Shown: positions 54,780-57,719 of the stretch, piece after piece | Layout: every line of letters begins with the position of its first letter | Numbering within the stretch: the stretch's first letter is position 1 | Sequence record: MN850614.1 | Reading direction: 5' to 3' (one strand) | Source of the DNA: Escherichia phage adrianh | DNA length: 64,000 bases | Translations under genes and position numbers: made by a program | Notes under the pieces: generated by a model | The model's database searches: none | The model's input: the letters and a program-made list of their open reading frames with translations, nothing else | Told to the model about the DNA's origin: nothing

Positions 54780-55174
54780 TAGCGAATGACCTGTGTTACC
54801 TGAATAGCTTCAGTTACTGACAAATCACCAACCGTTTCTTCTTTGACGAAGGTGAAGGTAAGTTCAACAGGCTCTTGTTCTTCCTGCTCAACCGGAATAC
54901 CGTTAAGCTCATCAAAGATTGATTGAGTTGTCCAGTCTTCTCCACCATCTGGGTAGTGGATTGCGTAAAGTGGAAACTCTAAATTATACCAAGCAAAAAC
55001 AGGGCAACCATCTGCATCATCTCGACATCTGTGGAGATATGTGTTTGTACCTTCAAAATGCAAATGGAGATTACCATTCTTCTCAAATAGAAGAGCATCT
55101 TGCAGGTCTAGTTCCTCATTTTCGCTGTAACGGCTGACATCAACCTTAACATGGATATGACTGTTATTATTCAT
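54779..55174 (-). CDS. Hypothetical acidic protein
   Basis: 131 aa. Confidence 0.5.
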   Translation of the reverse strand: MNNNSHIHVKVDVSRYSENEELDLQDALLFEKNGNLHLHFEGTNTYLHRCRDDADGCPVFAWYNLEFPLYAIHYPDGGEDWTTQSIFDELNGIPVEQEEQEPVELTFTFVKEETVGDLSVTEAIQVTQVIR

Positions 55175-55565
55175 AAAAACCTCTCTCTGCTTGTTCGATT
55201 TTTGCTCTTAAAATTTCGCAATGTTGTAAATGGTAGTTAGCTTCTTGTTCATGTGTTGCTAACTGCCTTTCAAGAACAGTTTTATAATAACCTGCAAGTT
55301 GCTCTTTTGTCAACGGGTGTTCTGAAATAATATCGAGTCCACTTTCGCCAAGAGGGTTGAATTGTCCATGCTCATTGACATTGTAAGTCTCAAACTTGAA
55401 CAGGCCATTGTTCACAGACTCAATAGGTGACAGTTCAACAAGCTCTACAGTAAACCGTGTATACACCTTGTCGCCTCTTGAAACCACATTGTTTCCGACA
55501 ATGCGTACAAGCGAACCATTGCGAGTGTACTTAAAAGTCCCAAAGTCACTAGCCCAAAGCTTCAT
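55167..55565 (-). CDS. Hypothetical protein
   Basis: 132 aa. Confidence 0.5.
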   Translation of the reverse strand: MKLWASDFGTFKYTRNGSLVRIVGNNVVSRGDKVYTRFTVELVELSPIESVNNGLFKFETYNVNEHGQFNPLGESGLDIISEHPLTKEQLAGYYKTVLERQLATHEQEANYHLQHCEILRAKIEQAERGFYE

Positions 55566-55583: not shown

Positions 55584-55607
55584 TAAAAAAGGCTCCCGAA
55601 GGAGCCT
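55584..55607 (-). terminator. Rho-independent terminator (minus strand)
   Basis: GGCTCC-CGAA-GGAGCC hairpin; T-run follows on the minus strand. Confidence 0.65.
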
Positions 55608-55616
55608 ATGAAGATA

Positions 55617-56081
55617 TTACTTTGGATATACACTGTCAAGATAAATGTCAGCTTCCATTCTACGTCTGTTTTTCAGACCGTTTGATGTGACCTTCTTACC
55701 TTTGACTGTAACCTTGTTCCACCACTGCATAGCTTCTGCGCAACCTACCTTATTACCAGCATTGTGGCGCTTGATAAATGTAGAATCCTGCATAGCTGTG
55801 ATGCCGATGTTGTATGTTTCACTTACAAGTGCATCAAACTCGTTCTGAGAAGTTGGAACCTTGATAGCTTTGTTCACTGCTGTAACAAACTTTTCAACAT
55901 CTGCGAGAAGATAATGTTCAGCTTGTTCAGCAGTAATTATCATACCCATCTTAACAGGTTTTCCGTCAATACGGATTGTACCATACCCGATTGTAGGGAT
56001 TCCGGCAGAGTCTTCGTAAGCCTCTAACTTCAGACCTTCAAAGAACTTAATAGCTTCTAAACCTTTTCTTGAGAGTTGCAT
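55617..56081 (-). CDS. Phage lysozyme (GH24 muramidase, endolysin)
   Basis: 154 aa; FEGLKLEAYEDSAGIPTIGYG resembles the T4/lambda lysozyme catalytic region. Confidence 0.8.
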   Translation of the reverse strand: MQLSRKGLEAIKFFEGLKLEAYEDSAGIPTIGYGTIRIDGKPVKMGMIITAEQAEHYLLADVEKFVTAVNKAIKVPTSQNEFDALVSETYNIGITAMQDSTFIKRHNAGNKVGCAEAMQWWNKVTVKGKKVTSNGLKNRRRMEADIYLDSVYPK

Positions 56082-56713
56082 TATGCCTCCCCTGCTGGGT
56101 TAACTGTAACTGTTGCCGCATTAGATGTTACAGAGCCACCTGCGCCAGTCACTACACAGGTGTAGCTTCCTGCATCAGCAGCGGTTGCACCTTCTTTGGT
56201 GTAAGTTGCAGCAGTTGCGTCTGGGATGACTTCCTCACCTTTCTTCCACTGATAACCTGTCGCACCTGTTGCCACAACATTCAGTGTTAAGGTCTCACCT
56301 TCAGTGATTTCTTGATTGGTTGGTTGCTGAGTGATTGATGGTGGCTTGATAGCATCCTTCAACTTAGCATTCAACATTGAGAACGGTTTAACTCTTGCCA
56401 GCCATTCACAATAAACTGTATCAACGTCTTTACCATTGATAATTGCATATTGTAAGTCCATGAAGAAGTCAGACGTTCTCATTTGAGCACCAACGCTGTA
56501 AAGCAACTCATCACTAAATGGAACTTTGTAGTCTGGTTTGTAGTCAAACTTCTTAACTTCTGCAATATCAGCTTCAGGCCAATACGAACTATAGGTAAGT
56601 GGTAAAATAGCCTCTTGATATGTTCTAAAATCATATCTCTTACCAGCCTTTACGTTCGCAACGAAGCCCTTCACAAACTCTTTGAAGTCTGGGTAAGTCT
56701 TTGCTTTAATCAT
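56081..56713 (-). CDS. Protein with C-terminal Ig-like domain
   Basis: 210 aa; C-terminal Thr/Gly/Ala-rich beta-strand-like region (TLTLNVVATGATGYQW ... YTCVVTGAGG); N-terminal part paralogous to the next ORF. Confidence 0.5.
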   Translation of the reverse strand: MIKAKTYPDFKEFVKGFVANVKAGKRYDFRTYQEAILPLTYSSYWPEADIAEVKKFDYKPDYKVPFSDELLYSVGAQMRTSDFFMDLQYAIINGKDVDTVYCEWLARVKPFSMLNAKLKDAIKPPSITQQPTNQEITEGETLTLNVVATGATGYQWKKGEEVIPDATAATYTKEGATAADAGSYTCVVTGAGGSVTSNAATVTVNPAGEA

Positions 56714-57081
56714 TTCTTTTTAGCCTCTAAATGTGCGTTTAGTCTAAAATAACCTTTGTGATGCGGAGATACATCACCAACAACAATACCTTTAACCTTA
56801 TAGCCTTTACCAATTACATACTGGATATCCATAAGGAATCTTCCAAGTCCAACAATATGGAACATTGGATATAATAGGTTCTCAGAATCTGGAATATTGA
56901 TTTCAGGTTTGTAGGTACGCTGTTCGATTGTTGGTGTAATATCTTCTTCAGGCCATTTGCTGAGTCTCCATGTCAAAGGTGTTGGGATAACATCATTAAG
57001 GTTGTACCTTTCACCATTTTGCACGGAATTGATATAGGATTGTAGGAAGCAATAAAAGTCTTTTGCACTCTTAGCTTTCAT
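56710..57081 (-). CDS. Paralog of the N-terminal domain of the 56081-56713 protein
   Basis: 123 aa; shared KAK..(D)F..F...(Y/F)...V..G.RY and FLMD(L/I)QY(A/V)I. Confidence 0.5.
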   Translation of the reverse strand: MKAKSAKDFYCFLQSYINSVQNGERYNLNDVIPTPLTWRLSKWPEEDITPTIEQRTYKPEINIPDSENLLYPMFHIVGLGRFLMDIQYVIGKGYKVKGIVVGDVSPHHKGYFRLNAHLEAKKK

Positions 57082-57128
57082 TAAGTATCCTTATAAATAG
57101 TTAAAGGGGCATCAGCCCCTATTCACAC

Positions 57129-57719
57129 TTAAGCTTTGGTCTTAAGTAGGTTCTTAAGTTTTTTAAGATTCATACTCTCATCAAACTTAAAACCAAATCC
57201 ATTGACATAATCAATGAACTCGGATTTCTTACTGAGTGACAATGCGTAACTCATATCAAAGTTCTTACTTATTTCTGCGTCTGGACTAGAGTTCACATCA
57301 AATGAAATTTCTGTAGGCTCTTGCTTACTTTTTCTCATATTATCAACCAGCAAACATGTATAGTTTGCTGGATAGAAATTTACACTACCATCAACGTAGC
57401 TGTACTTATTATTATGAATAAGGTTGGAAAATACCTTAAGGAATGTTTCTGAGTCGTGGCAAACAAGTTTGAATTGGCTGCTCTCTCCAAGCGCAACTAA
57501 TGAGTACGGACTTTCACTATCAAAGTCATAATTTGGATTCGATGCCGTCACTGTTACACGCATCAAGTTATTAGCAATAGTCTTCTGTTTAAAAGAATTT
57601 TGAACATAGTGAAGACCCCTCTCACACTGATTGACTAGCTCTTTAAGTAGGTCATTTGCATATGGTGAGTTAATTGATACAGAGCCATCACTATTGTAAT
57701 TAAAACTTACTGTTAACAT
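57129..57719 (-). CDS. Hypothetical protein
   Basis: 196 aa. Confidence 0.5.
   Translation of the reverse strand: MLTVSFNYNSDGSVSINSPYANDLLKELVNQCERGLHYVQNSFKQKTIANNLMRVTVTASNPNYDFDSESPYSLVALGESSQFKLVCHDSETFLKVFSNLIHNNKYSYVDGSVNFYPANYTCLLVDNMRKSKQEPTEISFDVNSSPDAEISKNFDMSYALSLSKKSEFIDYVNGFGFKFDESMNLKKLKNLLKTKA

Follow-up and report, generated by a model that had tools for sequence, protein, structure and literature searches.

The two tandem open reading frames (ORFs) described here belong to a phage decoration system that is mostly known, and they add to it one modest, seemingly unreported detail: a short paralog of the hexamer decoration protein Hex-Dec that consists of the capsid-anchoring part alone. 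This conserved, co-expressed, anchor-only gene lies directly 5' of the Hex-Dec gene in more than 230 genomes, those of both phages with solved capsids included. It could bear on the decoration of only 60 of the 80 capsid hexamers by Hex-Dec, and, for phage structural biologists and engineers, on the use of the capsid-binding domain (CapBD) as a display anchor. Taking the evidence together, we consider it quite likely that the longer ORF is Hex-Dec, that the shorter one is a duplicate of its CapBD, probably a derived one, and that the number of Ig-like domains in the longer protein is set by recombination.

The window, by which we mean the whole 64-kb stretch of Escherichia phage adrianh DNA analysed, comes from a Felixounavirus genome (Felix O1-like myophage). 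Both ORFs were found where the earlier note had placed them, at 57081..56710 (123 aa) and 56713..56081 (210 aa); that they lie on the minus strand is a point absent from that note. With the endolysin gene they form a compact three-gene minus-strand cassette, flanked by two terminator-like hairpins, in the order Ig-less CapBD paralog, Hex-Dec, endolysin, the genes being joined by ATGA and TAATG overlaps. The features are listed below; the ATGA overlap, the Shine–Dalgarno-like element and the hairpin 5' of the short paralog were read from the sequence.

57106..57119, minus strand: hairpin GGGGCTGATGCCCC with T-rich tail, just 5' of the short paralog
57088..57092, minus strand: Shine–Dalgarno-like AAGGA, 6 nt 5' of the short-paralog ATG
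56710..57081, minus strand: 123-aa ORF (short paralog), free-standing Ig-less paralog of the Hex-Dec CapBD, phrog_4463
56710..56713, minus strand: 4-nt ATGA stop/start overlap of short paralog and Hex-Dec
56081..56713, minus strand: 210-aa ORF (long), Hex-Dec / Sf14 gp20 family, phrog_3995, one-Ig variant
56348..56713, minus strand: CapBD of Hex-Dec (aa 1-122), aligned with the residues modelled in 9ncf_S and 9c2d_S
56096..56344, minus strand: single I-set Ig-like domain (aa 124-206), from Pfam and a predicted beta-sandwich
56312..56336, minus strand: 25-nt inferred crossover zone, identical in the first and last Ig repeats of four-Ig relatives
55617..56081, minus strand: endolysin, Phage_lysozyme PF00959, third gene of the cassette, its ATG overlapping the Hex-Dec stop (TAATG)
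55590..55607, minus strand: intrinsic-terminator-like hairpin with T-run that closes the three-gene cassette, found by a terminator scan

The closing hairpin has a counterpart in phage wV8, whose annotation places a terminator in the corresponding position. The hairpin 5' of the short paralog was not reported by the simple terminator scan of the window; wV8 carries a rho-independent terminator annotation for a hairpin in this position, and the hairpin sequence also occurs among the Felix O1 terminators (table in PMC3185647). The order short paralog, long paralog, lysozyme was found in the window and in every locus whose downstream flank was covered. The short gene lies directly 5' of Hex-Dec with the stop/start overlap kept in 30 of the 30 loci holding both genes, and the divergent metagenomic lineage L036 keeps it in the form TAATG. 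The ATGA overlap suggests that translation of Hex-Dec may be coupled to that of the short paralog. For Felix O1 ORF36 as well as ORF37, RT-PCR puts the transcript maximum at 60 min, late in infection. In Bas63 more than 10 kb separate the Hex-Dec gene from the structural module (PMC12609058), and the major capsid protein (MCP), whose Asp221 contacts gp20 in Sf14, is not encoded within the 64-kb window.

The 210-aa ORF and its Ig-like domain

The 210-aa ORF is identified by near-identity to solved structures as the known Hoc-like hexamer decoration protein, termed Hex-Dec in Bas63 and gp20 in Sf14. A phmmer search of the PDB returned 9ncf_S (E=6.7e-218) and 9c2d_S (E=2.4e-152), and the protein matches phrog_3995 at 2.4e-125. 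Its AF2 model (pLDDT 82.9) gave Foldseek matches to the same chains at 97% (9ncf_S) and 88% (9c2d_S) identity, with a TMt of 0.81 over the 122 modelled residues of 9ncf_S. The homologous N-terminal domain of ∼120 aa is two-lobed with pseudo-C2 symmetry and occupies, as a monomer, the central site in each of the 60 pentamer-proximal hexamers in a T=9 capsid, leaving 20 of the 80 hexamers, those on true 3-fold axes, empty (PMC12609058, PMC11821841). In Sf14 gp20, Arg79 and Arg107 form salt bridges to MCP Asp221 (PMC11821841); both arginines are present in the Hex-Dec of the window and in every long copy in our alignment. Both Sf14 gp20 and Felix O1 gp36 have been detected in virions by mass spectrometry, the latter with 44% coverage and with a mass, 31.6 kDa, that agrees with prediction. 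The suggestion of capsid decoration in the earlier note was thus right, as near-identical homologues (PDB 9NCF_S and 9C2D_S) occupy hexamer centres by cryo-EM.

Most database records call this protein something else. GenBank and PHROG labels for the family read 'tail protein' or 'major tail protein', a reading that we regard as highly improbable, since the matches to tail PHROGs (phrog_158, 853 and 3575) are confined to aa ∼96-209, the Ig region, and cryo-EM places the homologues on capsid hexamers, the Bas63 authors themselves calling the tail label a misannotation (PMC12609058). The N-terminal tail-tube domain of a tail protein was not found, and the identity had already been refuted for the homologues by cryo-EM. 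The long gene is therefore already known: it is a further allele, with a single Ig, of a decoration protein for which a structure appeared in 2025, and its analysis serves mainly to correct a widespread label.

An Ig-like C-terminal region had been claimed for the longer ORF only, and this is borne out by Pfam, where Ig_3, Ig_2 and I-set all match aa 124-204 above their gathering scores, and by structure prediction. The AF2 model has an all-beta domain at aa 126-205 (block-mean pLDDT ∼84-96) that matches titin and obscurin I-set domains, whereas the model of the short protein matches solved CapBDs only. If T4 Hoc is a guide, the Ig domain may hold virions close to their hosts through weak adhesion or aggregation.

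Members of the Hex-Dec family carry one to four outward-facing I-set Ig domains, and this phage has one. DNA comparison with a four-Ig relative (L003) showed that the first 33 nt of the Ig-coding region in the window are identical to Ig1 and that the remainder is nearly identical to Ig4, so the single domain is a chimera with an Ig1 head and an Ig4 body. It would have been left by an in-frame deletion with its crossover in the 25-nt identical stretch. Comparison of the sequences indicates, more generally, that recombination between repeats, in register and in frame, is the main way in which the long gene gains or loses Ig domains. Copy-number variation described as 'unexplained' in PMC12609058 and PMC11821841 can in this way be traced to independent in-register crossovers, which imply fast and reversible tuning of fibre length.

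A free-standing copy of the capsid-binding domain

Only the capsid-binding domain is represented in the 123-aa protein, a diverged duplicate with the same fold. The tandem paralogy proposed in the earlier note held up in a pairwise BLASTP alignment of the two ORFs (41/121 identities, 34%; 53% positives; E=3e-16), and the motifs on which it had been based are present as KAK..DF..F, G(E/K)RY and F(L/F)MD(I/L)QY(V/A)I, except that FFMDLQYAI stands in the long copy where the note gives FLMD. The PHROG matches are reciprocal, the long protein matching phrog_4463 at 1.4e-16 and the short one phrog_3995 at 4.2e-15, and both PDB chains found with the long protein are also matched by the short one, at 6e-12 and 2e-11. 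Its AF2 model is of moderate confidence (pLDDT 69.7), and the only significant fold matches in the PDB were 9c2d_S and 9ncf_S (E ∼2e-5, TM 0.66-0.68, 116-117 columns). Since sequence, profile and fold concur, the paralogy is firm. The short paralog is a full-length member of phrog_4463 (5.9e-80), a family that carries no functional label and that is, by the same three lines of evidence, homologous to the Hex-Dec CapBD.

With its last residue at aa 123, the short protein lacks a C-terminal Ig-like domain. Searches of the short ORF against Pfam, NCBIfam and PADLOC were all empty, and assignment to a defence, anti-defence or other named family was rejected on that basis. Peptides of the short paralog include YNLNDVIPTPLTWR and FLMDIQYVIGK. 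The protein is basic (pI 9.1), which would suit an acidic hexamer centre. The anchoring arginines of Hex-Dec are absent from the short copies, the positions aligned with Arg79 and Arg107 being Gly78 and His/Gln/Asn107.

Equivalents of the short paralog are Felix O1 ORF37, wV8 gp42, Bas63 bas63_0125 (genome record MZ501086, found via tblastn) and VpaE1 ORF40c. Relatives outside the Ounavirinae were not found, either by an HMM scan of 1.84 billion representatives, which gave only 12 clusters, or by Foldseek against the PDB and BFVD, the BFVD matches to the short model being Ounavirinae proteins only. The short paralog is not mentioned in the Bas63 and Sf14 structure papers (PMC12609058, PMC11821841), and we found no report on it in the later literature on Hex-Dec.

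The short gene is under purifying selection. Median dN/dS was 0.12 for the short copy, across pairs whose dS reaches beyond 1, and 0.044 for the long CapBD. At non-synonymous sites the short copy changes about three times faster than the long one. An intact ORF of 122-124 aa is present in all 30 loci that carry the gene and in about 232 phage records, the fold-defining residues are invariant among the short copies, and the paralog is conserved in a distant lineage that forms a separate 50%-identity cluster (P0098). In one natural and widespread clade (Z31, REP9, vB_CECAV_041 and EcF-vB) the gene is a decayed pseudogene, of which the last ∼75 nt 5' of the Hex-Dec ATG are kept. The short paralog is in sum a conserved yet dispensable copy of the capsid-anchoring part.

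This retained stretch in the pseudogene clade, together with a stop/start overlap that is conserved everywhere, might suggest that the short ORF has no function at the protein level and is a duplicate in decay, surviving solely because it serves Hex-Dec as a translational leader. We consider this very unlikely, given the low dN/dS ratio at such divergence, the intact ORF in every carrying locus, and the conservation of the gene in P0098 with its fold-defining residues unchanged. A further possibility is that a programmed -1 frameshift at T AAA AAG fuses the two proteins, as in the frameshift-added Ig domains of other phage structural genes. In the window the heptamer TAAAAAG does lie four codons before the stop of the short ORF, and the -1 frame is open from the heptamer onwards and is the Hex-Dec frame. 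The fusion is rejected, however, because the heptamer is not conserved: the corresponding sequence is GAA AAG in wV8, AAT AAA or AAG AAA in Mooglevirus, AAT AAA AAT in SUSP-like phages and AAA ATA in L036. Moreover, the structural models of both Sf14 and Bas63 begin at Hex-Dec residue 1 and Felix O1 gp36 has the mass predicted for the unfused protein, so a frameshift product can hardly be expected.

Origin and role of the short paralog

The earlier note proposed that a small ancestral CapBD-only gene was duplicated and that one copy then gained an Ig-like domain. The five single-copy lineages that we found do not favour this order of events, as most already carry a C-terminal Ig-like domain: two Kolesnikvirus lineages (P0100 and P0101) have Big_2 above the Pfam cutoff and P0102 has an I-set domain, while P0103 has a Big-like match that is sub-threshold only and P0104 is the sole one without any Ig-like domain. 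The CapBDs of the single-copy lineages are also closer to the long than to the short copy; that of Erwinia phage phiEa104, for example, is 37% identical to the long copy over 114 aa (E=5e-17) versus 33% over 66 aa for the short copy (E=2e-7). In a neighbour-joining (NJ) tree the Kolesnikvirus single-copy proteins group with the long clade, at a node that bears no bootstrap value, and the shorts form a deep clade with 100% support. Because most single-copy lineages bear Ig-like domains and their CapBDs lie nearer the long copy, the Ig-bearing form is probably ancestral and the short gene a derived, faster-evolving duplicate of the CapBD alone, its roughly threefold faster non-synonymous change being what is expected of such a duplicate.

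Several observations nevertheless fit gain of the Ig-like domain. The depth and full support of the short clade and the existence of an Ig-less single-copy form in P0104 are compatible with it, and the C-terminal modules differ by lineage (I-set, Big_2 or a low-complexity tail), which argues that they can be acquired. Such variety, down to the lack of any module, points to repeated domain swapping, under which an Ig-less ancestor is possible; and as the Kolesnikvirus node has no bootstrap value, the duplication could predate that split, with loss of one copy there. On balance, we judge the order proposed in the earlier note rather unlikely and retain the derived origin of the short gene.

As to function, the short protein does not appear to be a stable part of the virion. 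It is not listed among the 17 proteins of the Felix O1 virion proteome, in which smaller and rarer proteins were found, nor does the text of the VpaE1 study name it as a virion protein, ORF40c being annotated 'hypothetical'; the sources behind this absence are a pair of older shotgun studies and a table confined to assigned proteins. Bas63, which encodes an intact short copy, shows no density on its other hexamers (PMC12609058). Tentatively, we suggest that the short protein may be an accessory that acts transiently or away from the mature virion, for instance on procapsid hexamers or in the loading of Hex-Dec, although we rate this specific role below even odds.

Alternatively, the short paralog could be a stable second decoration, a 'bald' Hex-Dec that either occupies the 20 true-3-fold hexamers or shares the 60 sites and so tunes the density of Ig fibres. 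Its model has the fold of the solved CapBDs, its pI is compatible with the acidic ring of Asp221 residues, and Hex-Dec does leave 20 hexamers unoccupied; in addition, late transcription is shared by the Felix O1 equivalent and Hex-Dec, whose genes overlap, and the distant lineage P0104 has a single-copy CapBD without Ig. Low occupancy of the true-3-fold hexamers is possible, because icosahedral averaging blurs a monomer there. We nonetheless think a stable decoration unlikely. Sf14 gp20, like the Bas63 protein, is reported on pentamer-proximal hexamers only although both phages encode the short gene, and the density at the occupied Sf14 sites was identified as the long protein (PMC11821841). 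The missing virion peptides in Felix O1 and, as far as its named proteins go, VpaE1, the loss of the Arg79 and Arg107 equivalents and the natural pseudogenization of the gene in a widespread clade all argue in the same direction. Slightly less probable again, in our estimate, is a more specific proposal in which the short paralog would be a third player in Felix O1-type decoration, binding hexamer centres transiently or at low occupancy, for example in procapsids or at the 20 true-3-fold positions, or escorting Hex-Dec, and thereby helping to set the site selectivity and occupancy of Hex-Dec.

Comparison with known decoration systems

In the literature covered, we found no description of a two-gene layout of anchor-only plus anchor-with-display for any phage decoration system, and no CapBD-only paralog has been described for T4 Hoc. 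The long ORF is the direct orthologue of Bas63 Hex-Dec (9NCF chain S) and Sf14 gp20 (9C2D/9C3A chain S), with CapBDs 97% and 88% identical, and has in common with them Arg79 and Arg107, I-set repeats, and a position next to the endolysin gene outside the structural module. It differs in its Ig region, with one domain against four in Bas63 and three in Sf14, and this domain combines parts of the first and last repeats by recombination.

The Kolesnikvirus proteins (Erwinia phage phiEa104 gp038 / phiEa21-4-like, labelled 'tail protein') have a homologous CapBD (37% identity, E=5e-17), encoded in the same syntenic slot, between the 196-aa-homologue gene and the endolysin gene. Their C-terminal module, however, is Big_2 rather than an I-set Ig, and they have no short paralog. 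For T5 pb10 (5LXK) the likeness lies in the Ig part of the long ORF (E=1.3e-11) and is limited to aa 133-207, with no similarity detected between the capsid-binding domains.

A functional parallel is T4 Hoc, likewise a monomer at hexamer centres that combines a small capsid-binding domain with a string of Ig domains; Hoc is dispensable and has a proposed role in adhesion or aggregation (PMC12609058, PMC11821841). At the sequence level, it is the Ig part of the long ORF alone (aa 127-208) that matches 'Hoc-like head decoration' PHROGs. Hoc binds the capsid through its C-terminal domain, so that its domain order is reversed relative to the long ORF, and the two capsid-binding folds differ in topology and have minimal similarity in sequence (PMC12609058). 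The long ORF thus works like T4 Hoc but is not a member of the Hoc family.

The cassette and its Hex-Dec gene

The two ORFs that an earlier note had described as tandem paralogs are present exactly where it placed them, on the minus strand, in the following arrangement:

57119..57106, minus: GC hairpin just upstream of the short ORF
57081..56710, minus: short ORF, 123 aa
56713..56081, minus: long ORF, 210 aa
56081..55617, minus: endolysin (Pfam Phage_lysozyme match), next gene downstream of the long ORF
55607..55590, minus: clear hairpin and T-run after the lysin
60374-63996, plus: tRNA genes (Pro, Glu, Met x2, Asn, Tyr, Asp, Lys x2, Ile, Ser, Leu x2, Ala, Gly, Thr, Val, Gln)

The ORFs meet in an ATGA overlap and the endolysin ATG overlaps the long ORF stop as TAATG; given these overlaps and the flanking hairpins, the three genes look like one compact unit. 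The wV8 annotation has a rho-independent terminator at the hairpin in the same relative position as 57119..57106, and the Felix O1 terminator list includes an identical hairpin sequence (PMC3185647). We also considered a programmed -1 frameshift fusing the two ORFs, since T_AAA_AAG lies four codons before the short ORF stop, where the -1 frame is that of the long ORF, but rejected it as the heptamer is not conserved across relatives.

In the phage collection 230 records match the 2.2-kb region (215 covering at least 80% of it), most at 90-99% identity and including wV8 and Felix O1 relatives; the window is thus Felixounavirus. The long protein matches PDB 9NCF chain S, the Bas63 'immunoglobulin-like domain protein' (E=6.7e-218), and 9C2D/9C3A chain S of Shigella phage Sf14 (E=2.4e-152), and its model superposes on these chains with 97% and 88% identity over 120-122 modelled residues. 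These are Hex-Dec and gp20, Hoc-like monomeric decoration proteins in which a capsid-binding domain (CapBD) of ~120 aa at the N-terminus, built of two pseudo-C2 lobes, occupies, in a T=9 capsid, the centre of pentamer-proximal hexamers only, with one copy in each asymmetric unit and hence 60 per head, displaying 1-4 flexible Ig-like domains outward (PMC12609058, PMC11821841). Sf14 gp20 is anchored by salt bridges that Arg79 and Arg107 form with the major capsid protein residue Asp221 (PMC11821841); both arginines are kept by the window's long protein and by all long homologues that our alignment shows. Mass spectrometry of virions identified the orthologues of Sf14 (PMC11821841) and Felix O1. 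Tail-protein PHROGs match the Ig region only, and the Bas63 authors state that the 'tail protein' label is a misannotation (PMC12609058). The long gene therefore encodes an already known, structurally solved decoration protein, bearing out the capsid decoration guess of the earlier note.

Immediately upstream of the short ORF lies a 196-aa ORF (57129-57719, minus; phrog_4034, function unknown) whose Kolesnikvirus homologue (27% identity, E=7e-17) has kept that place; in metagenomic loci its slot is occupied by a gene of 183-195 aa, with a faint Pfam Phage_Inh_N hint in one (L040). Divergent from the cassette are a 123-aa ORF (58339-58710, plus) and a 471-aa ORF (58792-60207, plus), equivalent to wV8 gp046 'DUF5681 domain-containing protein' and gp047 'RNA-binding protein'; in two distant loci (L040, L042) a DUF5681 and DUF2828/DUF7788 gene pair adjoins the cassette. 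No holin is evident beside the endolysin (55167-55565 and further downstream, minus), where the small ORFs carry no annotation in wV8 or Felix O1; Kolesnikvirus has an annotated holin ~1 kb downstream of the lysin. The 18 clustered tRNA genes are typical of Felix O1-like genomes (compare the wV8 annotation).

The short CapBD-only paralog

Paralogy of the two products was upheld by BLASTP (34% identity over 121 aa, E=3e-16), by reciprocal PHROG family matches (~1e-15 each) and by the short protein matching the same PDB chains as the long (9NCF_S and 9C2D_S; 6e-12 and 2e-11). In the AlphaFold2 models the secondary-structure elements of the shared part follow one another in a common order (short: helices 6-21 and 79-91, hairpin 95-119; long: helix 7-22, short helix 29-32, helix 80-92, hairpin 95-120). 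The Ig-like region is, as had been proposed, confined to the long copy, where residues 124-204 match Pfam Ig_3, Ig_2 and I-set above gathering scores and residues 126-205 are modelled as a confident beta-sandwich, whereas a Pfam search of the short protein gave no match. By eye, the CapBD segment after helix 1 (…NGERYNL / …AGKRYDF) resembles that after helix 2 (…GKGYKV / …NGKDVD) in both copies (56710-57081 and 56348-56713, minus), which would fit the pseudo-C2 two-lobe architecture of Bas63 and so an older internal duplication.

The short protein belongs to phrog_4463 (function unknown) over its full length and is equivalent to Felix O1 ORF37, wV8 gp42, VpaE1 ORF40c and bas63_0125. Its model is of moderate confidence (pLDDT 69.7, pTM 0.70); in the PDB it significantly matches the two solved CapBDs alone (TM 0.66-0.68 over 116-117 columns), and matches in BFVD are to Ounavirinae proteins only. 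NCBIfam and PADLOC searches gave no matches. In all 30 loci carrying both genes (L001-L029 and the window), the gene (122-124 aa) immediately precedes Hex-Dec, and the two share a stop/start overlap. Its median dN/dS of 0.12 (Nei-Gojobori; pairwise dS up to >1) indicates purifying selection, although constraint is weaker than on the long CapBD (0.044). It is nonetheless dispensable in nature, since it is a decayed remnant with common boundaries in Z31, REP9, vB_CECAV_041 and EcF-vB (ATG lost, ~225 bp deleted, frameshifts), and 19 records of the phage collection have only a weak, CapBD-level match to it. We regard a non-functional leader as very improbable. In Shigella phage Z31 (L030, 2998-3570), where the short paralog is missing as well, a frameshift shortly beyond the CapBD breaks Hex-Dec into ORFs of 134 aa and 55 aa (168 nt); unless it is a sequencing error, this would leave a CapBD-only decoration protein.

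Could the short protein itself be a stable 'bald' decoration? In short copies the equivalents of Arg79 and Arg107 are Gly78 and His/Gln/Asn107. The Bas63 capsid has no density on other hexamers (PMC12609058) and its genome encodes an intact short copy; Sf14 also encodes one, and there gp20 is located on pentamer-proximal hexamers only, with the density at occupied sites identified as the long protein (PMC11821841). The 17 Felix O1 virion proteins include smaller ones (9.7-13 kDa) but not the short protein, which is also not named among virion proteins in the accessible part of the VpaE1 report, where the ORF is annotated 'hypothetical'. The lost arginines, lack of extra hexamer density, lack of mention in these virion protein lists and natural decay argue against stable Hex-Dec-like decoration, which we consider unlikely. 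A capsid-related role is kept alive by the shared fold, the conserved Hex-Dec overlap, a basic pI of 9.1 (the long CapBD has 7.7 and the complete long protein 5.0) and late expression, Felix O1 ORF36 and ORF37 falling in the 60-min RT-PCR class with portal, sheath and fibre genes (PMC3185647). We tentatively suggest that the short protein may be a transient or off-virion accessory, acting on procapsid hexamers or in Hex-Dec loading.

Ig copy number and recombination

Length classes of the long ORF, corresponding to 1-4 Ig domains
210-211 aa: 5 loci
294-298 aa: 12 loci
377 aa: 10 loci
461 aa: 2 loci

Phages with short paralogs identical at 97% or more show a mixture of these classes. One-Ig alleles are chimeric between first and last repeats, with differing breakpoints (after ITQQPTNQ in the window, GYQWKK in locus L020 and GSYTCVV in locus L005), and in Felix O1 the second Ig combines Ig2 with the last Ig. 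Compared with a 4-Ig relative (L003), the first 33 nt of the window's Ig DNA are Ig1 and the remainder Ig4, the crossover falling within a 25-nt identical stretch (56336..56312). Such chimeras and the crossover in identical sequence explain the copy-number variation that both structural papers call unclear (PMC12609058, PMC11821841). In those papers the short gene is unmentioned, and 'paralog', 'duplication' and the neighbouring gene numbers are absent from the text; a wider literature search found no description of the short paralog. No earlier report of the CapBD-only paralog or of the recombination mechanism was found in the literature searched; both are modest observations.

Distant relatives and the direction of domain change

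Searching 1.84 billion representative proteins with a profile built on the two paralogs recovered only 12 clusters. One divergent 87-kb metagenomic phage carries the same gene trio, with a short protein (P0098, 122 aa), a 298-aa CapBD protein with two Ig domains (P0099) and then lysozyme; more distant lineages have one CapBD gene each:

P0100, P0101: Kolesnikvirus (Erwinia phage phiEa104, Salmonella phage ST-3; L031/L032, 2441-3055), CapBD and Big_2
P0102: CapBD and I-set
P0103: CapBD and only a weak, sub-threshold Big-like match
P0104: L040, 4001-4462, CapBD and a K/S/E-rich low-complexity tail, no Ig-like domain

Four single-CapBD lineages occupy the matching slot, after a gene of ~185-205 aa and, where the flank is present, before lysozyme; the genes around P0102 on its contig are different and unannotated. 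The short copies form one clade with 100% support, and the phiEa104 CapBD resembles the long copy more closely than the short one. The earlier note had proposed duplication followed by Ig gain; as the outgroup single-copy genes mostly combine the CapBD with an Ig-like module, that direction is probably reversed. The most parsimonious reading is that duplication of an Ig-bearing gene gave an upstream copy in which only the anchor was retained; our confidence in it is reasonable but qualified, since there has clearly been more than one swap of C-terminal modules. The Big_2 domain of Kolesnikvirus against the low-complexity tail of P0104 points to a conserved CapBD anchor whose C-terminus can be exchanged across Ounavirinae-like lineages.
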